Shown: one piece after another, positions 1 to 26,892 of the stretch | Numbering within the stretch: the stretch's first letter is position 1 | How the letters are laid out: the number at the start of each line of letters is the position of its first letter | DNA from: Vermamoeba vermiformis | Taxonomy: Eukaryota | Length of the DNA stretch: 29,503 bases | Reading direction: 5' to 3' | Assembly: GCA_045837725.1 (NCBI GenBank) | Contig: JBEWZL010000096.1 | Coordinates: forward strand, 124,001-153,503 | Program-made: the position numbers and the translations under genes | The notes under the pieces: generated by a model | What the model saw: only the letters and a program-made list of their open reading frames with translations | Told to the model about the DNA's origin: nothing | The model's database searches: none

Positions 1-707
1 CCTATATAGAACTGCGTTGAAATCCGTGGATAAATCCTCTACTGCGCCTATCTGGGACTCTTACTTGACTTTCTGCTTTGAAACTAAGATGCCTTTCGAA
101 GAGCTTCAGGCCATCTTCCAAGTACGTTAAAAGCTATACTGTTACTATATTTAGAGCTATCCTAATCGCACACCATGTTTAGAAAGCCATTGACTCTCGC
201 TCCGTTGGCTTAGAGAAGGTGAAAGAAGACGTTATCGGAAAGGCCATTGAGTACTTGACCACCGAGCAGATCCGTGACTTGTACCAAAGGTATGTCCTTG
301 CCTTACTCGGGCTCGTGATCATCGAAATCTAACCACTGGTCACAGGGCCTTGTTTACTAAGCCATGGAATATCTCCTTAATTGATCGCTGCCTCGACTAT
401 GAGGAGTCAATTCTACCGGATGTAAACAACAAGAGCAACTCCGTTGATTACAGCAAGATTCGCGAACTTTACGAGAAAGCCGTTGGCGAGTATGGCGTTT
501 CATCTCCTGGTAAGTACCATGGTACAGATATGATAGCTAACGGTACTAACCCTCGTGCCATCAGAACTCTGGCTCCGGTACATTACTTGGGAAAACAGCA
601 TTGGACAACTTCAAAAAGGCACTGCATTGTACTGGCGTGCGATGAAAACCGTCAAGGATGCTTCGACATTCTCAACACTGCATTCCCAATACATTAACAC
701 GCAATAA
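1..707 (+). CDS. UTP6: 3' part of a HAT-repeat protein, U3 snoRNA-associated protein 6 (UTP6)-like; 5' end outside the window
   Basis: Exons <1-121, 183-289, 346-509 and 565-707 join in frame across GT-AG introns: ...IWDSYLTFC...IRDLYQRALF...KIRELYEKAVGEYGVSSPELWLRYITWENSIGQLQKGTALYWRAMKTVKD...stop. The ending REyYErA..EfG...LW..Y...YWRAMK resembles the UTP6 C-terminus. AATAAA overlaps the stop. Confidence 0.8.
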
Positions 708-948
708 AGATCTGAATCTGATCGAACAAACAGAGACAAGTTAATGAAACTCCAATAATCTGCAATACCAAATTTCTGTTCGGATAATGATGAAAATTGT
801 GTACGCGGTCCAATTAATCGAAAAGATACGAAGAAGGAGTCTCGCCTTTTTGGAATTCCTCTTAGGTCATATGACTAAACAAGAACTTAAAATTCATGAA
901 GGCGATTTGATTTTGTTCAAACTCTCACACACCACACTACAACACAAC

Positions 949-1718
949 ATGTACCCTTACGGAGGAGGCTATCCCCAAACCACCGTCTATGGTGGCTATC
1001 CTGGTACCACTACCACGACTACTTACGTGTCCATCCCTCAAAGCTATGTTTACAACCCTTCCATGTACTACTATGAAGTTCCTTATGATCCCTTCATGCC
1101 CTTCATTCCTCCCATGGGTACGTACGATTATACATAGCTTCTTGACCAAGTTTATCGCATAAATTGCCGATTTTTGGACCCAAAATTAAATCTACCGAAT
1201 TTTTTTTTATCCTTTCAAAAAATGCTAAAAATATCAAATATGAAATCGTGAACTAACGTGATCGTGTACAGGTGTTCCTCCCCACATTGCTCAAAGAATG
1301 ATGAATGCCTCTGCTGTTTTCCGCAGATTCGACATGAACCGCTCTGGTATGATGGAATATAACGAATGGATGATGGCTATGTCTGCTTTGGGTATGTATA
1401 TCGCGCGATTGCTTATTTCTATGGTTATTTGAGCTAGGGAGCTCGCAGGAATTTCCCTCTTGAATTTGACCGTTTTTTTTTACTTTGGTGCCGATCTTGT
1501 TCTAACCGCCAGTATTTCAGGTTACATGATGAACCCTATGGACGCTCCTCGTTTGTTTGCTATGATCGACAGAGATCGCTCTGGCCGTATTAGCGGTAAG
1601 TGGTCTTTCACGAACGGATGAAACCTGAACCGAAACTTTTTTTTAACAAATCAATCTAATTGAATTTTTATATTCAGAGCGTGAATTCGTTGAATACTGG
1701 GCCCAATACGGCTGGTAA
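949..1718 (+). CDS. Small calcium-binding protein: Gly/Tyr/Pro/Thr-rich N-terminus plus two EF-hands
   Basis: Exons 949-1117, 1272-1391, 1521-1595 and 1678-1718 give MYPYGGGYPQTTVYGGYPGTTTTTTY...VFRRFDMNRSGMMEYNEWMMAMSALGYMMNPMDAPRLFAMIDRDRSGRISEREFVEYWAQYGW*. Two canonical loops: DMNRSGMMEYNE and DRDRSGRISERE. Confidence 0.88.
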
Positions 1719-2000
1719 ACGAGCTGCCTGCAAGCCGTGCAAAGGCGCCTCGAAGCTCGTGCACGAGAAATCCGTCCTTTACTTAGCGGTAAAATAAACT
1801 GTTTTTATTATTTTTCAGAAACGACTGCGTTTAATTATTCATATTTTCTTCGATTTCGGTATCATTACTGAGCTTTGGCCGCACCAAACTAGCTAGAGCG
1901 TAAATTTACGACCTAATCCGGCAAATTACGCCCGCTTGTGCGCGACCGAATCTTTCTATGAAACAAATGAGGTGTGATTTATTTCATATGTACAAGATTC

Positions 2001-2575
2001 TTAGTGCGAAGTAGCACTGGCGTGGGTAAGGTGTTGGATTTGGTTCAGTACGCGTCGAGTAGCAGACATTTTCGTTCCAAAGCGATTAATGCCGTCTTGT
2101 CGCAAGCGAGGAGCGTGTTCCTTTAGGTAGTTATCCAGACTAGCTCTGCGAAGACGGAAGAGATATTAGATTTAGTGGTGATGTTATGCGACAAGATGGT
2201 CAAAAAGTGGACAACATCCGCTTGTCAAGCAGAAATTTTTGAATTCGTACCTGTCCGTAACATAATAATGAACAGTGTGAAGCACTTTACTGTCATCTTT
2301 TGGCTGTCCTTCGTCTTCAGGGTTGCGATTGAACCTAAAATTAGATCCAATTAATTTCAAAAAATCTTTGAGCTTGCTAAAAGACAAAAATTGAATTTTT
2401 GCAATCATTTCATCTTCAATGAGATATATAATAACACGGAAATTTGGACTTACCATCGTGCGTCGACAAATCCAGGACATTTCAAAAGTTCGCCAATGTG
2501 CCCGGGCAACCAGGCGCTAAAATCGGCATTAATGTCCTTATCAATGCTCAAATTAACCTCGTAAACGATGCTCAT
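2001..2575 (-). CDS. DUF4286-family small protein
   Basis: Exons 2575-2454, 2334-2251 and 2145-2001 give MSIVYEVNLSIDKDINADFSAWLPGHIGELLKCPGFVDARWFNRNPEDEGQPKDDSKVLHTVHYYVTDRASLDNYLKEHAPRLRQDGINRFGTKMSATRRVL...*. YEVNL, W..HI.E.L..PGF and L..YL.EHAPRLR..G..RFG are typical DUF4286 motifs. The ORF track does not recover this gene correctly. Confidence 0.82.
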
Positions 2576-2684
2576 TTATCTTTGGAAGTAAAATACTGTT
2601 GTGGTGCTTGGTTTCAATAGTTATTTTTATGTTGAGAAGTCATACACAGCTCAAATAGAGTTTAGACGCACGGAAATAACGTCA
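2576..2684. promoter_or_regulatory. Short divergent intergenic region, probable bidirectional promoter
   Basis: Only about 110 bp separate the start codons at 2575 (-) and 2685 (+). Confidence 0.5.
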
Positions 2685-3795
2685 ATGGCATTGAATATAA
2701 TATTAGTGATATTTGCACTGCTATTTGGATTAGTTGTCACTCAGCAACTTCCAATTCCCGCGAGGTACGACGGAATGTCCATTGGTAAGTCCGTCATAGT
2801 GCAAGCATTAATAACTCAAAAAGTATTATAGGTATTATAGAAATATTATATGTAATGGAATGAATTAAGCTGTTCAATTAATGCTTTTAAATATAAAATT
2901 CCCTCGACCTTTCTTGATCTGTTTGTCTTTGCCGACGAAAGGATCCTAATAGCCCAATAATTTGATAGGAAATCCTACTGCGCCTATTTGGATCGAAGAG
3001 TTCGCCGATCTGCAGTGTCCGGGTTGTCAATCCGCTCATCCAGTCATCAAACAAGTCTTAGCACACTATGGCCCCAACACCGTATATTTCACTCAACACT
3101 TGTACCCTTTGCAGTTACATAGACAAGCATGGGACGCGCACAAGGTACATATTTTGTACAACATATCCTTTTATAATTTTGATTTTTTAAGGCCGCTGCA
3201 ATTGTTGCCAAATACTCTCCTAAACGTATGTTCGAGGTTCAATATAATAATATGGTTAGTATAGTCGTATTAACGCTATTATAAGAATACTGGAACTTCA
3301 TCGACTACATGTTCGCGCATCAAAGCGAGTTCTACAATTCAGTCTACTTCAACAAGACTGAAAAAGATCTCTTCGATCAATTTGCAGGCTATGCTAAAGG
3401 CTTTGGAGTCAGCACTTCAACGTTTTTAACTGAAATGAACGGAAATTACGCTTACAGCGTCGCCGATAGGTAACTAAACCGCCCTTATTCGAACAATTAT
3501 TATGATACATACAGATATCGTTGATGACATAAAAATCGTATATTAGAATATTTTCATCGATAGAAGTTGTTTTGTAACGAATTCTTTTCAGCGGTAAAAA
3601 CACCGGAATTTCGCGTCAAGTGTACGGCACGCCTACCTTCTTTGTGAACGGAGTTAAAGCTACACAGATTGATTCGAGTTGGGGCATTGACGACTGGACC
3701 GGTTTTATCGGTAAGATAATTCGTTCCGTACATTTCTTGGTTTAAGGTTTTGACCCACAAATTTTTCAGATTCGCTGCTTGGAAACAATAACTGA
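2685..3795 (+). CDS. Secreted DsbA/Thioredoxin_4-type disulfide oxidoreductase
   Basis: Hydrophobic signal peptide MALNIILVIFALLFGLVVT, then GNPTAPIWIEEFADLQCPGC (CxxC), YPLQLHRQA, YWNFIDYMFAHQ and VYGTPTFFVNG (cis-Pro loop). Multiple GT-AG introns; stop TGA at 3793-3795. Confidence 0.88.
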
Positions 3796-3951: not shown

Positions 3952-6900
3952 TTAATTTGTACGAGAATCGAAATCCAAGACAATCATGCTCGTTGAACCG
4001 GATTCACGATCCGCTGAAAACGCTGCGTATCGAGAATTTAAAATTGGATGACCAACAGAACCGCTAGGCAAGATGAGTGTATCATCCCAAGTATTGTTCT
4101 TCAAGTTCCATACGATTCCTACTCCTCGATCCGAAGTGATCGTACGATAGGCACCGTTGGTGAACCGAGAATTCTACGATTAATTAGGAAACATTTCCAA
4201 GTATTTAGCATTGATTTAACGTACGATTCTATTATTCTGGTGTAGTATCTTCATAGTTCTAATGTCAATGACGGCACTGCGAGAGGGATCCGGGGATGTA
4301 GCACTAATCAAATGTTCGTCTAAAATATCAATAGACTGATATTCCATTCGATTTGTCTGGCATGTTTGCAACTTCGCGTAAGTGCTCATCGTAAATGTTA
4401 ATGCTGTTTTTCGAGTTACTGATAATATAGTCTCCGGCGATGTGTTTCTTTGCTTCTAAAATACCTCTATCGGGGAATGTTGCCACTACACTTTGTAATT
4501 CGATGTCGAAGACCACTGCCATATAGCGTTAATACTGGCGAATGTATTTGAAGTGTTTCGCACAGATCTTATGAATTTGAATGCGTGAATTGACGCGTGT
4601 CAAACATGTCATTTTGACACTATTTTCAGGTTGTAACATTTTTTGAAGAAGTTATTCAATGCAATCACTTTGACACGTGTCAAACGTCAGACTTACTGTA
4701 GCCGACAATGAATGTCTTAGGCGTCAATGGAGCCACAGATGGGTATTCAATGCCAAGCAGTGGCTCAATCCCAAATTCTGCTACCGTGTGGTACATCGAT
4801 TTGTAATTGACATAATACGAAAATTTGGTGTTGGACGATGCCACGAAACTCGGAATTTCGTCCGGTGTTGAATTCAAGTAGCCCACATGATTCGGGACGA
4901 ATGGCATTGCATGATATTGGATCTTATCATCGATACATTTCCAAAATACCAAGCCAGAGGGACTACTAGCACACAACCAATTTTCGTCGAATTGAAGTCC
5001 AGTCACATTTGCGTTGTTTTTGAACTTTAAAATCTTCTTGGTGAATTTTCCTTTCCTTAAATTCTCTGTAGCCCTATCGATATTAAAAGTCAATACCTAA
5101 TATAAGCCATGCCGATTATTACATCTGGACGTAATTTCAAGCTGTTCGATGACAGGTGTCACAATTTTTTTTCGTTCATGAACGAGCGTACCTCACCACC
5201 GATTCAGTTTTTTCGCGCCATGTTCTGTCGGAAGCGTCATTGTGAAGTCGCGAATACATTACTGGAAACGCAGTCTTCAGTGTTGTCTTCCAAAAGTACT
5301 CGCCGAATGATTCAGGCAACTTCTTCATCGTTTTGTTGACCGAGGCGAGGACTGCACGATCACGTGCTGGTAAGTGCATAAAAATCATTTCGGAGATTTC
5401 CAGAGGCAAGTGTTCGAATGGAAATTCCGTGTTGCCGTTAAACGTCATATCGTTTGTTTGAGGAGGCTCAAGGCTTTTCCAATGCGCTTAAAAAAATAAA
5501 GTATTGTTAATAGTGCTCGTAAAAATGTTCGTTAGGTGTTAAATACTTCGTTGGGCTTCCAATATTAGTGGCGAAGAGCGACCGTTGGTAAACGGAACCA
5601 GAAATTCTTCAGGAAACAATTTTTCGATTTTCTCGACCGATATGTCGTTATTTTCTAGCAAGAGCTCTTTGACAGCCGTTACGAAGTCTGAAAAAAAGTT
5701 AAAGATTAAAATTTTGGTTCGTAACGGGACCGGAGTGACATACTTTCCAAATGATTACTATTCAAAGGATGTTTTAGTCCGTATAAAGGACGGTAATCTC
5801 CATCCCTTTTAAAAAAAGTGTAAATAACGTAACAGGTCGCGGATCGATTACGTACCATTTCAAAAGGTGCTTGAATTGTTGCACCGTTAAGTGGGGCATA
5901 AACACATCATAATCATTAGCTCGCTTAATAAGCTCTTGAAGTAGATTATTGCTAGGTCCGAATTGCACTGAAAAAAAATAAGTCGTTAGATCGTGACTTT
6001 TTGACGACCTGGATCTCAATCTAATACCAAATATGTTGATGATAATGATAGCTTACATTTTTCTGCACCAACGGCTCGAATAATATATGGTAATGCGTGG
6101 GTTCTTGTTTGATCTTGAAGACAGATCCTGACCGGTGAATTGCAGCACGGATCTTCCACCAACAGATTTTTCTCCGCTAAATGATGGAGCAAATGAATTC
6201 GTTTTTCTTTTGTTAGTCTTCTTGACTTCACTATGGAATAGGTAAGCGTTTTCGAGTACGCTTTATTCCTGGCGAGTTTTGTTTCGAACGGATCCGCTCC
6301 AAGTTTCAGCATTGTGAACAATACTTTTGGATAGTGCTTTGCTCGGAATAGCGATAGTTGTTTTGCTTGATACAACAATTTCATTGACTCGTGACGTTGT
6401 TCTGCATCCAGTTTTTTCCTTCGCTTAATGTCGAAATCTGATAAATATCCAAGGTTAGCAACTAGCCTAATATTAGACAATTTTATTACGAAATTTAATC
6501 GCCATCATATTTTTCATTGAGAGGTTTATTTATGTCCCGTAAATTAGTACCCTTCAAAAAATCAACTTTGATGAAACATACCGAAATACTTTTCCCACGG
6601 CATGTATACTTTGAGAATAGCTACCAAATTTTCTTTTGTAATTTTATGCCATAACGCAGCACGCTGATCATCGTTCAGAGGCGAGATCAGGAAAATCAAT
6701 TTTGACAATGATTCAGCGAGCTCAAAATATTTATTATTCTGGGTTTCTACAGCCTATTAGATATGGTTCGAATTAATATCGCTAAATACAGTAAATGAAT
6801 TTTTAACATTATTTTTTCTGGGATGACTTACAGAACGTATTGAGGTGTCCATTGCTCGACGTAAAATAGCTGTATCGGGCACTTTCATATTGAAGATCTA

Positions 6901-6979
6901 ATGTTTTTTGTAGAGCGTTAATCAAGTGCTCTTCAGAAACGCATCTGATTAAGTCTAAGACAATGTCACTGTCTTCCAT
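3952..6979 (-). pseudogene. Paralogue A: helical N-domain + F-box + degenerate WD40 (FBXW-like), with two apparent frameshifts
   Basis: Exon structure matches paralogue B. Contains the F-box FEHLPLEISEMIFMHLPARD, the linker RATENLRKGKF..VTGLQFDENWL and the C-terminus MIVLDFDSRTN*. Relative to B the frame breaks near 6892 and between about 4372 and 4331. Confidence 0.7.
4669..4684. repeat. Palindrome TTTGACACGTGTCAAA (intronic)
   Basis: Perfect 16-bp palindrome in an intron of paralogue A. The variant TGACGCGTGTCA lies at 4591-4602 in the same intron. Confidence 0.85.
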
Positions 6980-7121
6980 GGGGCTTAATGTACGTAGATC
7001 TATTGGCTAATTTGTATGTATGTAGTGCATTAATCATACATATCACTTACAGGGTGATAAAAATCGCTGCAATCAATTTGTATTTTTTTAGGTCGCACGT
7101 GTCATGAAATTTCATGGGCTG

Positions 7122-7133
7122 TGACACGTGTCA
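7122..7133. repeat. Palindrome TGACACGTGTCA (intergenic)
   Basis: Perfect copy between the two F-box paralogues. A partial copy, GCACGTGTCA, lies at 7095-7104. Confidence 0.85.
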
Positions 7134-7203
7134 TTACAGTTGTCTTTCTCAGATCCAAAAGTACGATCGATACGTGGTAATTCACGGCAATCTTGCACGT
7201 GGT

Positions 7204-10087
7204 TTAATTTAAAATTGAGTCAAAGTCCAAAACGATCATTTTGGAGTACCTCGGCTCGGCGTGTAATGGAAATACAGCGTATCGTGAGTTACTAATATGG
7301 TTGTAAAGATTTGCTTCATTTGGCAGGGCAAAATTAGTCTCCCAAGTGTTGGTCTTCAAGTTCCATACGGTGCAGACACCTTTTTCAACTAACAATGAAC
7401 GGTACGCGCCATTTGTATTACCAAGCCACTGAAAAAAAAGTTGTTAGCGTTTTAATCTAACGCTTTTTTTTTGAATTAAATATTACCACTTTCATGTTGG
7501 TGTGTAAAGCCTGCATTGTTCTAATGTCAATGACTGAGTTGTCGTTATTGAGGTAGACCAAATTATCATCCAAAATTGTTAGCGAGCGTGTGAAGTGATG
7601 ATTTTCAGATCCCGGAAAATGATATTTGGCGACTTCTCGAAGGTCTTTGTCGTATATGACCACATCAGTTTGAGTAACGCCCACGATGTTATCGCTAAAA
7701 AGCTGTTTTTTGGCTGAGTGGACGTCGTCTTTTGGAAAGTTCGCCACTACTTTCTCTAGTTCAATATCGAAAATGCCTAAGGTAGCAAAAATTAATATCG
7801 TTCGGTATTTCCAAATCGGCTAAAATGAATACGCGCACTGTTGTAAAGAGCGTATAAAATTTAAGGAAGAAAAACTTACTGTGACCGAAAATAAATTTTC
7901 TTGGTGACAATGGCGTAGCGAACGGGGACATTCCGAATGTGCGTTTGAGTTTTAAGTCCGCGATATTGAAGCACTTTGATGTATTGTTAATATGATAGTA
8001 GATCTTGTCGCGATCGTAGCAAACAATGCTCGGAACTTCAAAGGGAGTCGAGTTCAAATACTTAACGCTATAAGGCGAAAATGGTAGTTGATGACAATGG
8101 TCAAATTCGAGGCCGCCATCGTTGCAGTTCCAAAACATCAAGTTTGATCCCGTACCAGCGCATAACCAATACTCGTCAAAGTTCTGTGCAGTGACACTTG
8201 ATACGAATTTTTTGAACGTGAGCGTCTTTCGAACGAATCTTCCATGCTTTAAGTTTTCAGCCGATCTACATGTTACTGCAGTTACTAAGAATTCATGAAA
8301 ATGACAGGAAATGTCAAAGTGTCATTTTGAATGACACGTGTCAACGACTTGGCAATAACATACCTTATTGCTGATAATGTCCTTTCGTGCCACGTTTTGT
8401 CCGATGTACCGTTTTGAAGGTGCGAGTACACGACTGGAAAGGCTGTTCTTAGTGTAGTTTTCCAAAAGTACTCGCCGAAGGAGTCTTTCAGCCTGTGCAT
8501 GTACTTGTTCACAGATAATAGTTGAAATCGATCGATTGCTGGCAAGTAGGTACAGATCATCTCGGAGATTTCAACGGGTAAATGTTCGAACGGAAATTCA
8601 GTACTGCCGTTGAACCTCAGATTCGCTGTAGGTTTGACGGATAGTTGGGCGTTTCTCCAATATTCTAATAATATATAAGTAAATAACAAGCATTATTTTA
8701 GTTAGTTGGAAAATTTTGGATCGTACTTGTTGCGGCATCCGCAAGTTTAGAGCATTCTTGGTTGCTGTATTGGACGAAAAATTCAGCAGGCAGTAAGTGT
8801 AACAGTCTTTCCACAGAAATAGTAGGATGTTCTTGCAATAACTCCTTGATTGCCGTAAAGAAATCTGATAAAAAATTAAGAATTGTTTTCGCGTGCGCAA
8901 TTTATCAAACGTACTCTCAAAATTAACGCATTTTTTGGGCGTCTCCATCGAATAAAGGGCTAGAAAAGAATTATTCGGCCTGAGAATAAGGCGTTAATTA
9001 TTGAAAAATACGACGCTCTTTTCATGAACGAACTTACTGCCGTAATAACAATTTGATTTGTTCGACAGTTAAATACGATAATATATTCTCGTACTGGCGA
9101 CTTTTGCGACAATCTTGCAGAATATTATCTCCTTGGAATTGCACTACGTAGTTTCAAAAGTGAGTTTGACACGACGTTTTGAAGACCAAAGCTTAGTATA
9201 GTAATACACTATAATATCGTATTTGACTTACCTTTATCAATGGTGCCGGCCTTTAACATAAATTTCAATGCGTACCGTTTACGATCATCAGTAAGGCAGA
9301 TCTGGATCGGTGAAATGTTGTCTGGACCACTCGGATCTGCTCGCAATAAATTTCTTAGTGATAATTGACGCAGTAACTCCAGTCGTTTCTGTCTTTTTAG
9401 CTTTTTTGATGTCAATATGGCGCATGTAAGCGTTTTCGAGTACGTGTTATTCTTGGCAAGTTTCTTTTCGAACGGATCTGCTCCAAGTCTCAATAAGGTG
9501 AATAACACTTTTGAGTAATGCTTGGCTCGGAATAGTGAAAGTCTTTTTGCATTGTAAAGTGCTTTCATTGGTTCGTAACATTGTTTTGCGTTCAAACTGT
9601 GTTTTAACTCCCAATCTGCAACGCGTTAACGACGGATCTGATGCAGGAAAAAAGTCAAGTGACAGATCTTACCAAAAAATTTCTCCCAAGACCATCTTTC
9701 CTTTTCCTCTTCAATAAGAGCTGGTGTTTTATCTCCATCTAGTATTTCCGTCCAAATTAACCCGCGTTGATCCGTTTTCAGTAGTGGGATCACGCTTAGC
9801 CATAGTGCTAACGATTCAGCAAATTCAAAATATTTATTTTCTTGCTTTTCTACCGCCTAAATATATTATACGAGTTACTAACACGCGAATGTCATTAATT
9901 GAATTAAATTCTATTTTGAGATGAGACTTACTAATACAATTGAAGCGTCCATTGCTTGGCGCAAAATTGTAAAATTCGGGGCAATCATATTTTGTTTTAA
10001 TATTTGTTGAAGATTTTTGTTTGCGTCCTCAGCAACAGCGCATCCAACAATGTCAGTCACGAGTTTGAAGTTTTCAACTGCTGCCAT
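7204..10087 (-). CDS. Paralogue B: helical N-domain + F-box + degenerate WD40 (FBXW-like), apparently intact
   Basis: All exon joins checked stay in frame from ATG 10087 (MAAVENFKLV) through LLRLGADPF, the F-box FEHLPVEISEMICTYLPAID and RSAENLKHGRF..VTAQNFDEYWL to MIVLDFDSILN*. The ENxxxGrF linker and terminal VLDFD recall FBXW7/beta-TrCP-type proteins. Confidence 0.8.
8332..8343. repeat. Palindrome TGACACGTGTCA (intronic)
   Basis: Perfect copy in the intron after the F-box exon of paralogue B. The equivalent intron of A has TGACAGGTGTCA at 5150-5161. Confidence 0.85.
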
Positions 10088-10393
10088 GGTGAATTAACAC
10101 TAGTCAGAGAAATCTATGGAATACTGCAGTATTGGCTCGTGTTCGACGGCACGGCCCAACGAAAATAATCGGATGAAAAACAAGAATCTTTTATCGCTTA
10201 TTTTGACGATCACATTCACAAGATTACAACAAAGAAATACCCAAACGAAAATTAGTAATGTAATTGGTTGCTAAAAAATTACTGCTAGAGTTTTACGGAC
10301 GTTCAGCCTTTTCTTGGCACTTTCAAATGCCAACCCGCGAAATAGTCTCGTTTAATAATTTGCAAAATATTGTTATATTATCGATAATATAAG

Positions 10394-13845: not shown

Positions 13846-14007
13846 TTAAAGCATGTATATAAAGAGTTTTTGCAAACCACTTTACTGGCGAAGAATAATA
13901 TGCAATACAAAAAGGTTAAAATTTTGTTGTCAACGGATCCGATTCGAATTGCAACTCTTTATTAGAGATCGTACGCTATTACGTATATTATACATGAGGT
14001 CTATAGA

Positions 14008-16185
14008 CTATTTGATGCGTTCAAGTTGTTCTTTGAAAGTTTGATCATCAACAAAACTGAGTGTCACTCAATCAATGACAGCCAATAATTCTCCGAATTG
14101 AATCTTATTGTTGGGACCGACGCGAGCAAAGACGTACCAATACTTTGATAGATCTAATAATTTCTTAGCCATAGTATCATCTCGTTGAAGCACATTTTGC
14201 TTTGGTGAGCAGATCCAGCAATTTCCTTCATATTCGAAAACTCCTAATGTCCGATATCAATAACGACATATTTGGTATTTTCAATTTATAAGACGTACCT
14301 ATGTAATGGAAATCGCAATTGAAAATAGCGGTGAACATTGGATGATTACTATCAGAGGTGGGCCACGAACACAGCTCGTTCAGCATTGGATCCGTGCACG
14401 GCCAGAAGACAACTCGTTCAGTTCTAATATCGATTATAGTGCCCATGCATTGTGTCAGGAAGAGATTCATTGAACGACCTATGAATTACGATTTGAATTA
14501 GTTTTCATGAAAATTAAATTTTTAACCCCGTTCGTTTACAAAAATCTACCTTCTTCATCAGATTTGAACATGTTTAAGTAGTCCTTGTTAATTATGACCG
14601 CGTTGTCATTGAACTCGCCAATAACATCGAGTTTCATTTTTTCTACGTAGAATAACTCTCGTTCTGTGTATTTTTCTTGCTCGCGTTTGATAAATTTCAT
14701 CAAATGGGGCGATTTTTGAATAATTTCCTTTTTTGTATAAATCTCTGTGCCTTGAGTCAACCAAAAGGTTTGAGCCAAATGAAAAGCAATTAACTTCCAA
14801 TCATCTTTGTCCAAATGATCGCCTAACTTTGTCAAATCAATGTCTTGCAGCACATCCGCTCGTTTTTTCAAACTTGTGGAATTCAACGCTTCAATAACTT
14901 TTTCACGAATCGATTCTATTCGTCTCAGCGTGATCAAACTAAGTAATACTCGGTAATCAGTTTCGGTTGCAATGAGAATAATAAAAATGATAAGTCACTT
15001 ACATAACGCGAATGCAAACAGAAGTTCGTGTGATAACTGAACGAGGAAGTTTTCGCTTAATTGGCAAGGGATATTTCTTATAAAAAAACAAACAAAAATT
15101 AATATCATAATTAGTAAGACCTTGAAGAAGAATAACTTTGAAGAATAAAGATTGTCGGATAGTAAGAATAGCCTACTTAGGTTTACGTACTTGTTCATGA
15201 AGCGGATAAGTTGCCAATAACGCATTATTGACTTCATCAGGAATTCCTCGGTGACAATCTTTCACGACACCAGCAGTGGTATCAATAGTAAATATATTCC
15301 GATCTTCATCGCCACTGCCACGTTCAAAATTCAAAATCGTTTCGTTGTCTGGCATCTTGGCGAACTGATAAAGAACATCTACATCTCGCGAATCTTGAGA
15401 TCCATGTCTAAAAAAGGCAATGTATTCTTTTTCTTTTGTAGTATTGTTATTATTGTCGTTATTTTGCTGATCAATAATCTTCTTCCAGTCCATCAACGAT
15501 GACACTCGGAGAACGTCTCCGAAATCGGTCGACTTGTTGTACGATGTATTTACTATCACTGGCTTCCAGCCCACTTATTTAATAACAAGATTTAATGCGA
15601 TGTATAAGATTAATGTTATTTGCTCGAGACTTGCCTGCAGATCCAAAGGTTTGTGTGTCGAGGAAATAATCTCCTTTCAATAGCGTTTTATCCTACGGAT
15701 ATCAAGTGTTAGCTTTATGTATAAATAGGGAGAATGTAAATTACTTTGATCACGATAATCCGCTCGATCCAGTCAGCGCCAAGTTTAGTTCCGATCCATT
15801 CCACTTTTTCACCGATAAGATTGTGGTTCATTACAATTTTAATATCTAGACCGTATGACTTCATTTGATGTAGGGCATTGAGGGCGTTAGGAAACGGATT
15901 AACGTTGGAAATTAAGCCTTTCTGAGAAAGAAATTCGAAAATAAATTACCTGACACTCCTCATGTAATTAATAATGTTATTTACCTCCAAATATATTTTT
16001 TCTAATTTTTGCTGCAATTTACTGGGCAATTGACTCGCTATTTCAAAGTTTGGACGCGAATCTGGTTCTTCGAGCTCTCGTGTTTGATTAGGAAAGTATT
16101 CTCGTAGTTTATCGCATGCTGATTTATCAATATTGGCTATTAGTCTTTCAAAGTCAATAAAAACGATGGGCTGTTGTGCTTCCAT
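14008..16185 (-). CDS. Multidomain fusion: NT5C-like HAD domain (degenerate) + Pol-beta-type nucleotidyltransferase with helical domain + Rnl1-like ligase domain (degenerate); in-frame TGA at 14068-14070
   Basis: Spliced protein: IVFIDFERLIAN...NPFPNALNAL...EKVEWIGTKLGADWIERIIVIKDKTLLKGDYFLD (NT5C-like); FFRHGSQDSRDVDVLYQF (hGS..DxD); RGIPDEVNNALLATYPLHEQ; WKLIAFHLAQT..GTEIYTK; LTQCMGTIIDIRTERVVFWP...IGVFEYEGNCWICS...YVFARVGPNNKI..LLAVID. Confidence 0.68.
15574..15634 (-). other. GC-AG intron (61 nt)
   Basis: Donor CAG|GCAAGT and acceptor ATAAG|TG. Removing it joins ...FGSA to VGWKPVIV in frame. Confidence 0.7.
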
Positions 16186-16294: not shown

Positions 16295-18027
16295 TTATAC
16301 AGTATTTTCGATTAAAACTGAATCGTCTTCAGTTTTTTCTTTGACACCAGCCCACAACTTGTGCAATTCTTTGCGAGAATTTGCAATGACGATCAACGTG
16401 ATTAAAGTAGTGGGTACTAAATATAGCAGGGCTGGTTGGGCGATGTGATACACAAAGGCGAAGACAATGGCCATGAACAGACCAGCCGCGTAACCCCACA
16501 TACTGTAGTAGAAGTAGCCCTTTGGCTGCGATGAATTTTGATCTATTTTTAGTGCGTACGCAATTAAGAACCCGGGAACTACCTAAAAATATACTTAGGG
16601 TTAATATATAACTCATTCATATCGTATCGCAATTGACTCAAAAGCAGATCTCGCACAACTTTTTCATCGTAAAAATGTACAAAATTTAGCTGCTAATTTC
16701 GTGGAATAATATAATGAATATTTTCCTATTTAAAGTGCTAATAAACTAAATTTGTAATATTTTTTTAAAGCTGATTGGCTTACGATGTCTCCAAGACCCA
16801 ACATGTGATGCCAATAAATTAGTTTCATCGGTAACTGCAGCTCAGGTACCACGCCTTGAATGTTCAACGACTGCGCGACAGTATTGATCGGATTGACTGT
16901 TGGTTTAGTCGCTACTGTCACCATCACATTGTCACCGAACAAGTACGGCGAGATGAACACCCAGAAGATGTCGTAGAAGAATAGGCAGACTAAGATTATA
17001 GTAGCCACTTTGATGTTTGGCAACTTAATGAAGCTATGCAAATAAAAATAGAGATTAATTTGGGAAATTTTAAACGAGATCTGGATGTGACATCCAATTT
17101 TTAGCCTGAGAGACATTATGCAATACGAGACGCCCATAACTAATTTAATACGATTAAATATTGAAATATAAGCGTACTGATGCTACATACTGTTGTTTAG
17201 TATCCAGTGGCCTGTAATTAACCACAAAAACAATCCGCTGAAAGCTAGAGGCACAATGATCAAATAAATTGCAGTTGTTTTACCACATAAAGGCAGTCTA
17301 TATAACGGTAATGATTAATAATGCGTTTCAATTATATTCAAGTCGTTTGGAGGAAATTTAGGTTTGACAGATTTTGAAATCTGATCTGGATCACCCCTTA
17401 CGTTATTTCGCGAGAAGCTAGCGAGGGAAAATATCGTTCTAACACAGGGTATAATACGAATGCCATGCTAGTGATGGAAGTGAAGAGCGTCATGACCAAA
17501 ATCAAAAATGAAAACGTGCCGAAGAAATAAAATAGGCACAACATCATAATAGACGCTACTATCGGGTATATTATAGCCTTCTTATCCGTAATAACGAGCT
17601 CTGTAATAAATAAAAAGTTATTATTTTGTTTTTACACGGAAATTCGTAACGGATGGCAAGAGAGAATTTCACAAAAATGAAGTAAAGTATCGAATAATTT
17701 ATACAGCAATATAATATTGGTATATTAAATGTAAATAATGACATAATAAAGGTTAATATGCAATGGTAATACTGCCTACGTCGTCCAAAATTTTTACCTT
17801 CATACTCGGGCTGAGACTTTAATACACGTTCATAAATTATAGAATATTTGCTTCCCAAATATACAGTGCCTACTGCAGTGGCATAAATACATAGCGAGGG
17901 TAAACTGAACAGATCAGCCCTTGAAAAAATACCAAACATTAGAAAAAAAGTTCTTGATGGCTGAGAGACGGAGAAAGGAAAATATTATATTGATTACATA
18001 CCAACCAGACGTTTGAGTTTCGGCCAT
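16295..18027 (-). CDS. SPPL3: Signal peptide peptidase-like aspartyl intramembrane protease (peptidase A22B), SPPL3-like
   Basis: Catalytic motifs FFYDIFWVF, LGLGDIVVPG (spanning an intron) and QPALLYLVP. IKLPNIKV, VMVTVATKPTVNP..LQLPMKL and a short N-terminus without a PA domain resemble SPPL3. Confidence 0.85.
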
Positions 18028-18125: not shown

Positions 18126-26789
<8,664 letters not shown>

Positions 26790-26892
26790 AAGTAACTACA
26801 ATACGTTTATATTTTGCAAGACATGTCATTAAAATCTTCGTCTGGGGGATATTTTTTTCGCTGTGTTAAAATCATATTCTGTTACTTGCACA

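Follow-up and report, generated by a model that had tools for sequence, protein, structure and literature searches.

We analysed a 29,503-nucleotide stretch of Vermamoeba vermiformis DNA (contig JBEWZL010000096.1, positions 124,001 to 153,503 of the forward strand; hereafter the window), and in it a minus-strand gene, 16185-14068, whose eight exons encode a protein of 545 residues. On balance, we favour the view that this protein represents a family of amoeboid protists in which an RNA 3'-end-restoring transferase is flanked by two pseudoenzyme domains. The central domain, a putative nucleotidyltransferase (NTase), would add one or a few nucleotides to the damaged 3' ends of RNA or tRNA, which could then be resealed or reused. 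The NT5C-like N-terminal domain and the half-ligase at the C-terminus would act as pseudoenzyme modules that bind a nucleotide, RNA ends or a partner protein, and catalysis is likely to be confined to the central domain. We infer that the central domain is a transferase, that RNA is what it acts on and that the dead domains serve in binding; restoration of RNA 3' ends in particular is proposed because of the precedent of RlaP and because relatives are linked to ligase, kinase, Thg1 and tRNA genes.

The features of the gene are listed below in the direction of transcription. X1, X4 and X6 are sequencing runs of relatives, P0158 is an orthologue from a related genome, and cdN is the mouse/human cytosolic 5'(3')-deoxyribonucleotidase.

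15985-16185, minus strand: exon 1, residues 1-67, start of the NT5C-like domain; the intron 1 joint is seen in X1 contigs, three X4 reads and one X6 read.
16147-16155, minus strand: remnant of HAD motif I, D11-F12-E13, with the nucleophile Asp retained and Asp+2 replaced by Glu; IDFER of P0158 lies opposite VDMDG of cdN (phmmer).
15745-15921, minus strand: exon 2, residues 68-126, NT5C-like domain (NT5C E 0.057, sub-threshold); intron 2 is skipped in an X1 contig.
15654-15659, minus strand: remnant of HAD motif IV, D138-T139 in place of DD; GDFFIDT of P0158 lies opposite GDLLIDD of cdN, and the window reads YFLDT.
15635-15692, minus strand: exon 3, residues 127-145 plus one base, followed by the GC-AG intron 15634-15574.
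15191-15573, minus strand: exon 4, residues 146-273, end of the NT5C-like domain, Asn-rich linker and predicted NTase core.
15374-15406, minus strand: HGSQDSRDVDV with G203, S204, S207, D209 and D211, the family's invariant GS...DxD block.
15003-15076, minus strand: exon 5, residues 274-297 plus two bases, start of the helical domain; colinear with P0158, zero RNA coverage.
14550-14938, minus strand: exon 6, to residue 427 plus one base, helical domain; intron 6 is skipped in an X1 contig.
14299-14478, minus strand: exon 7, first part of the ligase-like C-terminal domain (QCMGTIID...ERVVFWP).
14309-14320, minus strand: NCDF at the position of ligase motif I (KxDG), opposite EKIDGS/EKVDGS of six fusions and three bacterial ligases; the catalytic Lys is lost.
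14068-14243, minus strand: exon 8, remainder of the ligase-like domain, ending ...LLAVID before TGA 14070-14068.
14008-14067, minus strand: 19 in-frame codons after the TGA (VTLSFVDDQTFKEQLERIK), then TAG; they resemble the C-terminal tail of P0158 and P0001.

The central domain is sharply conserved. In its HGS.DS.D.D block, each of the residues G, S, S, D and D is found in 128 of the 130 rows aligned, the remaining two rows being gaps, and N247 (129/130), D267 (126/130), E268 (118/130) and N271 (130/130) are conserved to a similar degree. The E244 column holds Glu or Asp in 97 of the 130 rows, and the third carboxylate of the active centre may be E244 or D267. The elements expected of an NTase can thus be named in the window: hG[GS] as HGS, [DE]h[DE]h on a strand as DVDV, and the candidate third carboxylate. 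In the helical domain encoded by exon 6, K346, Q354, E363, T366 together with K367 (YTK), and R383 are conserved, and this Lys/Arg/Gln set is common to the helical domain across the family. All 25 family-conserved positions are kept in the window. A reading of the window made earlier from the letters alone (the sequence-only reading) had held that only the transferase kept its catalytic residues, and it is indeed only in the central domain that the conserved residues are kept.

The family to which this domain belongs is large. A search with exon 4 returned stand-alone proteins of ~245 residues with 48-51% identity, and an exhaustive phmmer search with P0001, a protein that shares a 90% cluster with P0158, gave 528 representative clusters (defined at 50% identity) at E<=1e-3, 325 of them at E<=1e-10. 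Its members come from Clostridia and other bacterial metagenome-assembled genomes (MAGs), Lak megaphages, Bacillus phage G, and heterolobosean and amoebozoan protists; Willaertia magna, Acrasis kona, Arcella intermedia, Soliformovum irregulare and Pelomyxa schiedti are the named eukaryotic sources. All named members are annotated 'hypothetical'. By tblastn the family was found in 18 of 50,697 phage records, namely 15 Prevotella Lak megaphages, two records of Bacillus phage G and one 636-kb uncultured phage. The phage G member is gp208, an unannotated gene 4.6 kb from a tRNA nucleotidyltransferase gene. Among 399 sampled genomes of the class of genome G001, the A2 profile matched G001 alone, so the family is sparse there.

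The search of the central domain through protists, phages and bacteria that the sequence-only reading had called for found DxD kept, and its fusion partners could be recorded. We sorted 151 family proteins with hidden Markov models (HMMs) built from our own alignments. The NTase stands alone in 89 of them, is followed by a ligase remnant in 29, and is followed by a full ligase in ten; 21 have the architecture of the window (NT5C-like domain, NTase, remnant), and two combine an NT5C-like domain with the NTase only. In Pfam scans of 131 members, NT5C was matched by 11, RNA_lig_T4_1 by eight (in each case directly after the central domain) and RNA_ligase by four, with one stray match. In a midpoint-rooted FastTree tree of the NTase region (130 sequences), the stand-alone forms and one clade of full-ligase fusions lie on one side, and most remnant-bearing forms, including all those with an NT5C-like domain, lie on the opposite side. 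The proposal of an ancestral healing/sealing polyprotein fared unevenly in this comparison. Bacteria do have NTase-ligase fusions (P0055, from a Myxococcota MAG), and an NT5C-like domain was found in none of the prokaryotic relatives. A lysine-less ligase-like domain is already present in the bacterial MAG of locus L007. Two further relatives carry extra parts without a Pfam match: a ~1000-residue open frame containing the NTase on a 67%-GC contig (L040, 3018-6008), and a 429-residue protein (L041, 5001-6287) whose gene is preceded by a Macro-domain gene.

We scanned the neighbourhoods of 36 prokaryotic and phage relatives, 30 non-viral and six from IMG/VR, with kinase and ligase HMMs. In four of seven reference-genome loci, all Clostridia MAGs, the stand-alone NTase directly adjoins an AAA_33 P-loop kinase and an RNA_lig_T4_1 ligase on the same strand. 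Counted over the 30 non-viral loci, the AAA_33 kinase is adjacent in ten, and in seven of these ten the RNA_lig_T4_1 ligase is present too; the contig ends before a ligase could appear in three of the ten, and seven of the 23 metagenome contigs are shorter than 2 kb. One operon (L003) has a calcineurin-like phosphoesterase in addition, and at another locus (L033) the gene order is LigA, Rnl1-type ligase, NTase and kinase+HD. In L001 (2753-10632) and L002 (2937-9782) a WCX/WYL-like regulator and a DUF2828+DUF7788 protein lie near the NTase, and the L001 operon, unlike that of L002, includes an ADP-ribosylglycohydrolase. These two operons look like a larger RNA-repair or quality-control cassette, as their gene content suggests; at the Rfam gathering score no RNA was found in either locus except a glycine riboswitch in L002.

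A second kind of neighbourhood involves tRNA. Thg1 is encoded just upstream of the NTase in L018 and L038; in L019 the open reading frame (ORF) at that position does not resemble Thg1. Between seven and 12 tRNA genes lie within ~2.5 kb of the NTase in five of 28 loci scanned (L018, L019, L030, L042 and L093). L042, a 153-kb metagenome contig, probably represents a phage of very large size; just downstream of its NTase there are seven tRNA genes and one for tmRNA, with a YqeY-like gene between (6155-10375). In L093, the 541-kb Prevotella phage Lak-A2 (MK250019.1), 11 tRNA genes (156-3703) lie directly upstream of the NTase homologue (4986-5732). The Lak-A2 record is unannotated, and one of its tRNAs was read as tRNA-His with anticodon ATG. 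Neither a kinase nor a ligase was found near phage G gp208 or at the Lak-A2 locus. An RlaP-type neighbourhood of RNA ligases and end-healing enzymes is present around prokaryotic relatives and not around the window gene. The neighbourhoods of the prokaryotic and phage relatives fit RNA end repair, which was one of the two roles put forward from the letters.

RNA-repair systems consist of ligases, end-healing enzymes and an end-restoring transferase. To our knowledge, RlaP is the only family of end-restoring transferases named in them, and it was reportedly first assayed in a 2025 preprint. The sections of PMC12776372 that deal with the enzyme state that RlaP, an NTase with a helical domain, adds one or two nucleoside monophosphates to an RNA 3'-OH, and that RNA ligases and end-healing enzymes are encoded in the same operons as RlaP. 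An end-restoring role for such enzymes in jumbo phages is predicted in a passage of PMC7824862. The family analysed here resembles RlaP in its stand-alone form of ~240-260 residues and, as far as those same sections describe RlaP, in placing a helical domain after the N-terminal catalytic core and in being found in large phages as well as in operons that encode RNA ligases and end-healing enzymes. It differs from RlaP in that none of the 131 members matches PF10127 at E<=0.001, in the profile-profile comparison (hhalign Prob 1.2% against five RlaP sequences and 0.6% against 20), and in the spacer between GS and DxD, which is four residues long as against ~10 in the RlaP sequences compared. Three genomes that carry the family gave zero PF10127 matches. 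The family would, by analogy, work like RlaP; since the PF10127 and profile-profile tests failed, we do not regard it as a member.

It is possible to go further, though we do so only tentatively. The window protein may belong to the eukaryotic branch of a trimmed NTase family that serves, independently of RlaP, as the end-restoring polymerase of Rnl1/kinase tRNA-repair modules in bacteria and megaphages, and that works as a pseudoenzyme-guided repair polymerase in amoeboid protists. If so, the dead NT5C-like domain and the lysine-less half-ligase would recognise RNA ends that are phosphorylated or broken and hold them in place for the live active site.

Several observations weigh against an end-restoring transferase flanked by pseudoenzymes. 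No Pfam NTase family is matched by any of the 131 members, and no PDB sequence matches the central domain in sequence and profile searches with P0001, A2 and A4. The match to the NTP_transf_2 profile is weak (Prob 9% over 21 columns, compared with 81.6% for an RlaP-versus-NTP_transf_2 control), and the two RlaP comparisons given above are weaker still. Only four residues separate GS from DxD, so that the canonical short second helix of the core is missing, and the stand-alone forms begin eight residues upstream of HGS, so that the first helix is missing as well. Searches of the PDB with the whole predicted model listed HAD chains alone and were silent on the central and C-terminal domains. By the HMM scan, 20 of the 30 non-viral loci and all six IMG/VR loci lack a kinase or ligase neighbour, seven of the contigs concerned being shorter than 2 kb. 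Finally, the window copy still has three HAD residues, namely the nucleophile Asp, the Lys of motif III and the first motif IV Asp, and in it an in-frame TGA (14070-14068) precedes the conserved tail; both points are taken up below.

The most substantial of the alternatives is that the central domain is not a nucleotidyltransferase at all and has some other fold with GS and DxD, acting as an RNA or nucleotide binder or performing another chemistry, in which case the protein would be an RNA-repair scaffold. The short spacer, the lack of a helix ahead of strand one or between strands one and two, hhalign probabilities of 0.6-1.2% to RlaP and 9% to NTP_transf_2, and the lack of a Pfam NTase or PDB sequence match are all what such a fold would give. 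In the remaining database searches, none of 120 listed matches has a precomputed Pfam domain, scans of six to eight family proteins against NCBIfam, PADLOC, PHROGs and Pfam gave no meaningful NTase match, and the PDB chains contained no NTase or ligase relatives of P0001, A2 or A4. However, G, S, D and D at 128 of 130 rows, with N247, D267, E268 and N271 near-invariant, form a pattern typical of an active site, and the weak NTP_transf_2 alignment has the right register. In that alignment, made against 29 NTP_transf_2 sequences (P 0.0037), GS falls on GS and DxD on DxD across a six-residue gap, so that the likeness to NTP_transf_2 (PF01909) lies in these motifs and the difference in the six-residue deletion, which takes out the helix after GS, and in the 21-column extent of the match. 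In the P0158 model the predicted order is strand, seven-residue loop, strand, helix, strand, strand, helix and then the helical domain, and DxD is placed at the start of a strand. According to the part of Kuchta 2009 that defines the fold, the canonical NTase core has a short second helix and carries [DE]h[DE]h at a strand start, and in the latter respect the family agrees with it. The family also fills the operon slot that, in the sections of PMC12776372 cited above, is occupied by RlaP in other repair systems. The motifs, the predicted secondary structure and the weak profile match may point to a Pol-beta fold for the central domain, and we consider it unlikely that the domain is something else.

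We compared the N-terminal domain with known nucleotidases. Residues 7-176 of P0158 pass the gathering cut-off of Pfam NT5C (PF06941; 35.8 versus 24.8 bits); the window was scanned exon by exon, and its exon 2 alone gave the sub-threshold value listed above. By phmmer, P0158 matches cdN (2jao_A) with E 5.5e-11, and Foldseek with the whole P0158 model matched cdN and the related mdN with E ~1e-11 and template modelling scores (TMt) of 0.73-0.79. The domain therefore has a HAD Rossmann-like fold with an NT5C-type cap, and shares fold and family with cdN/NT5C and mdN/NT5M. NT5C was the sole HAD match, HAD_SAK_1 (PF10307) being absent from P0158 and from the window exons in Pfam scans, and a word-index search with residues 1-190 of P0158 gave zero matches at E<=0.001 among 370 candidates.

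The domain differs from cdN and mdN in lacking the motif I DxD and motif IV DD of NT5C/HAD. The sequence-only reading had noted an NT5C pattern with DFE and DT at these positions, and the alignment of P0158 with cdN, which sets D-F-E on D-M-D and D-T on D-D, bears this out. When the window protein and 16 relatives with an NT5C-like N-terminus are aligned (mafft), the DxD pair occurs in none of the 17. The nucleophile column holds Asp in three of the 17 and otherwise Q, N, S, A, R, E, G, L, V or I, and the +2 column holds Glu in ten and Asp in three. A further difference from cdN and mdN is the fusion to two more domains.

The N-terminal domain could nevertheless still be a phosphatase that heals RNA 3'-phosphate or 5'-nucleotide ends, making the protein a two-enzyme machine that heals and extends. 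The window and P0158 keep the nucleophile Asp of motif I and the first Asp of motif IV, and the window also keeps the motif III Lys. HAD phosphatases are described as regular parts of RNA repair systems in the portion of Iyer et al. 2021 (PMC7824862) that covers them, and a relative of the window protein, P0142, has a HAD_SAK_1 domain. On the other hand, Glu has replaced Asp+2 and Thr the second Asp of motif IV, and because the nucleophile is Asp in only three of the 17 sequences and DxD in none, phosphatase chemistry does not appear to be under selection. As judged from the alignment, the family does not conserve this chemistry, and we consider a surviving phosphatase quite unlikely. Since the window copy keeps those residues of motifs I, III and IV, we infer, rather than observe, that its N-terminal domain is dead.

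The C-terminal domain corresponds, by alignment, to the first half of the adenylyltransferase domain of an Rnl1-type ligase from which the catalytic Lys has gone. We aligned with mafft the region after YTK from the window, 15 relatives of the same type, six NTase-ligase fusions, and three bacterial stand-alone ligases taken from the NTase operons of relatives. The window-type domain has the ligase block Q-[CS]-x-G-x-I-I-D...ER.V.(F/Y)P and a W.P stretch, and shares with the ligases the blocks Y-x-(V/I)-F and (A/G)-x-R-x-x-(L/V)-T. The two are related through the fusions, which match Pfam RNA_lig_T4_1 (PF09511), as can be seen from the profile comparisons. The 16 remnants align with the ligase domains of the six fusions at Prob 99.2% (E 9.6e-20, 114 of 117 columns) and the fusions with the bacterial Rnl1-type ligases at 98.2% (E 5e-14), while the direct comparison of the remnants with the three bacterial ligases is weak (38%, 33 columns). 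Pfam gave zero ligase matches for the window exons and for P0158.

The likeness to T4 Rnl1-type ligases (PF09511) is thus confined to the N-terminal half of the adenylyltransferase domain. The window-type domain lacks KFF and the KxDG Lys, has mostly lost the motif III Glu, and stops short of motifs IV (EG.V) and V (VKIK). The description of the C-terminus as a lysine-less Rnl1-type remnant, with NCDF on KIDG and KFF missing, was therefore correct. The loss is general: K[LIVMF]DG[ST] occurs in none of 50 remnant-type proteins and in nine of ten full-ligase-type proteins (an hmmalign of remnants to the full-ligase HMM consisted mostly of gap columns and was excluded from the counts). A bacterial MAG, too, has a truncated ligase-like domain that lacks the Lys behind its NTase (L007/P0048), and the remnant is therefore old and retained rather than simply a product of decay within eukaryotes.

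The gene model was built by joining ORFs at the only in-phase splice signals, and runs in a single frame from an ATG at 16185-16183 to the TGA at 14070-14068. The peptide strings quoted in the sequence-only reading all lie on the minus strand where it had placed them (HGSQDSRDVDV at 15406-15374), and its proposal that short ORFs are spliced into one protein agrees with the 545-codon frame. The seven introns are 52-114 nt long, six of them GT-AG and one (intron 3) GC-AG, and are AT-rich (GC 0.28, compared with 0.39 in the coding sequence). The GC content at third codon positions is 0.39, and neighbouring exons span 0.35-0.67. The orthologue P0158, a 575-residue gene model, has 379 of 545 residues identical and aligns free of gaps at all seven junctions.

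Splicing was followed in runs of relatives, of which X1, X2 and X3 have word shares of 0.09-0.11 with the stretch. X1 consists of contigs 95-99% like the window, presumed to be RNA, and X4 and X6 of raw RNA-seq reads 90-95% like it. Introns 2 (52 nt), 3 (61 nt) and 6 (71 nt) are skipped exactly in X1 contigs. Intron 3 has the donor GCAAGT, and the contig that omits 15574-15634 leaves ends that read CT..GC on the plus strand, which is GC-AG on the strand of the gene. Intron 1 is also skipped in X1, where the aligner gives 66 nt with three letters between, a reading explained by the 63-nt intron together with two mismatched bases at the border of the exon; the identical joint is present in three raw X4 reads and one raw X6 read. 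Six X5/X6 reads run from the start of exon 8 into loose ends in which exon-7-like coding was read by eye, suggesting removal of intron 7. Five of the seven introns (1, 2, 3, 6 and 7) are accordingly seen spliced in the transcripts of relatives; introns 4 and 5 have no read coverage, nor has 13900-14142 in any run. Between the window and the X1 contigs there are 28 single-base differences, 19 synonymous and nine non-synonymous, and four of the nine fall in the Asn-rich linker, which is full of indels and aligns unreliably. These 28 are the rows that concern X1 among 32 tabulated; the four that come from X4-X6 reads alone were omitted. Because of these transcripts, the colinearity of P0158 and the 19:9 ratio of synonymous to non-synonymous differences, we conclude that the gene is real, is spliced as first supposed and is under purifying selection.

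The 3' end of the gene was initially set at 14008, which is the TAG 19 codons beyond the in-frame TGA and thus not the end of the frame. As TGA 14070-14068 is a stop by the standard code, the predicted protein ends at ...LLAVID. P0158 and P0001 have Arg at the position of the TGA and a closely similar tail beyond it, and in the P0158 model residues 564-574 of the tail form a confident helix. A change from CGA to TGA, a base-calling error or read-through may each explain the TGA, the site lying outside read coverage. The use of TGA as a sense codon in this organism was considered and dropped, since the other long exons of the window are open under the standard code and this is the sole in-frame TGA in the gene.

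The TGA raises the possibility that the window copy is decaying or truncated and on its way to becoming a pseudogene. The stop would remove a conserved 19-residue C-terminal helix, and it lies within the interval 13900-14142 that has zero reads. Against this, the other 545 codons are open, all seven splice sites are intact, the 25 conserved positions are kept, synonymous differences outnumber non-synonymous ones as given above, and the gene is transcribed and spliced in relatives. One C-to-T substitution, or an error in base calling, would be enough to account for the stop, and we see little chance that the gene is decaying.

It is highly improbable that the transferase makes a nucleotide second messenger in the manner of cGAS/CD-NTases, with flanking domains that sense ligands: this other role put forward from the letters has in its favour only the generic GS...DxD and an N-terminal domain of nucleotide-binding type, six family members have no PADLOC match, nothing else points to signalling, and instead of effector-type neighbours there are RNA ligase, polynucleotide-kinase-like, Thg1, Macro and tRNA genes.

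Burroughs and Aravind are said to have described, in 2016, multi-domain 'Swiss Army Knife' (SAK) RNA repair proteins. Like the SAK proteins (PF10307), the window protein is a eukaryotic multi-domain fusion of HAD, RNA ligase and NTase, and it differs from them in that its HAD domain is of the NT5C type and both flanking domains lack key catalytic residues. The Pelomyxa protein P0142 unites RNA_lig_T4_1, the same NTase family and HAD_SAK_1. In the literature searched we did not find the NT5C-NTase-ligase-remnant architecture or the NTase family described, though Burroughs and Aravind 2016 may mention them. A ligase-associated RNA-repair transferase from a separate family, flanked by pseudoenzyme domains, would be a variant new to this literature.

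If the family is a second, independent repair transferase, it would be one that fills the same slot in Rnl1/kinase operons, and it would give a function to genes that stand unannotated beside the tRNA arrays of the largest known phages. The window protein would then show how, in nature, two repair enzymes became pseudoenzyme modules on either side of a domain that is still active, and the role of the dead ligase and dead phosphatase domains would become directly testable. Whether or not this holds, the 528 clusters make up a large family of putative NTases that has no model in Pfam, NCBIfam, PHROGs or PADLOC.

The surroundings of the gene are an ordinary eukaryotic nuclear context, with a signal-peptide peptidase, a neurobeachin-like BEACH/WD40 gene and F-box genes as neighbours in a Pfam scan. 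The signal-peptide peptidase (Peptidase_A22B) lies at 16298-17182 on the minus strand, and the large neurobeachin-like gene, with DUF4704, PH_BEACH, Beach and NBCH_WD40, at ~19900-26800 on the plus strand. Elsewhere in the window, 4683-6504 and 7764-9625 on the minus strand are a tandem duplicate of a two-gene unit, the paired ORFs having 42% and 51% amino acid identity, and an F-box-like ORF (8288-8692) adjoins the second copy (7764-9625).

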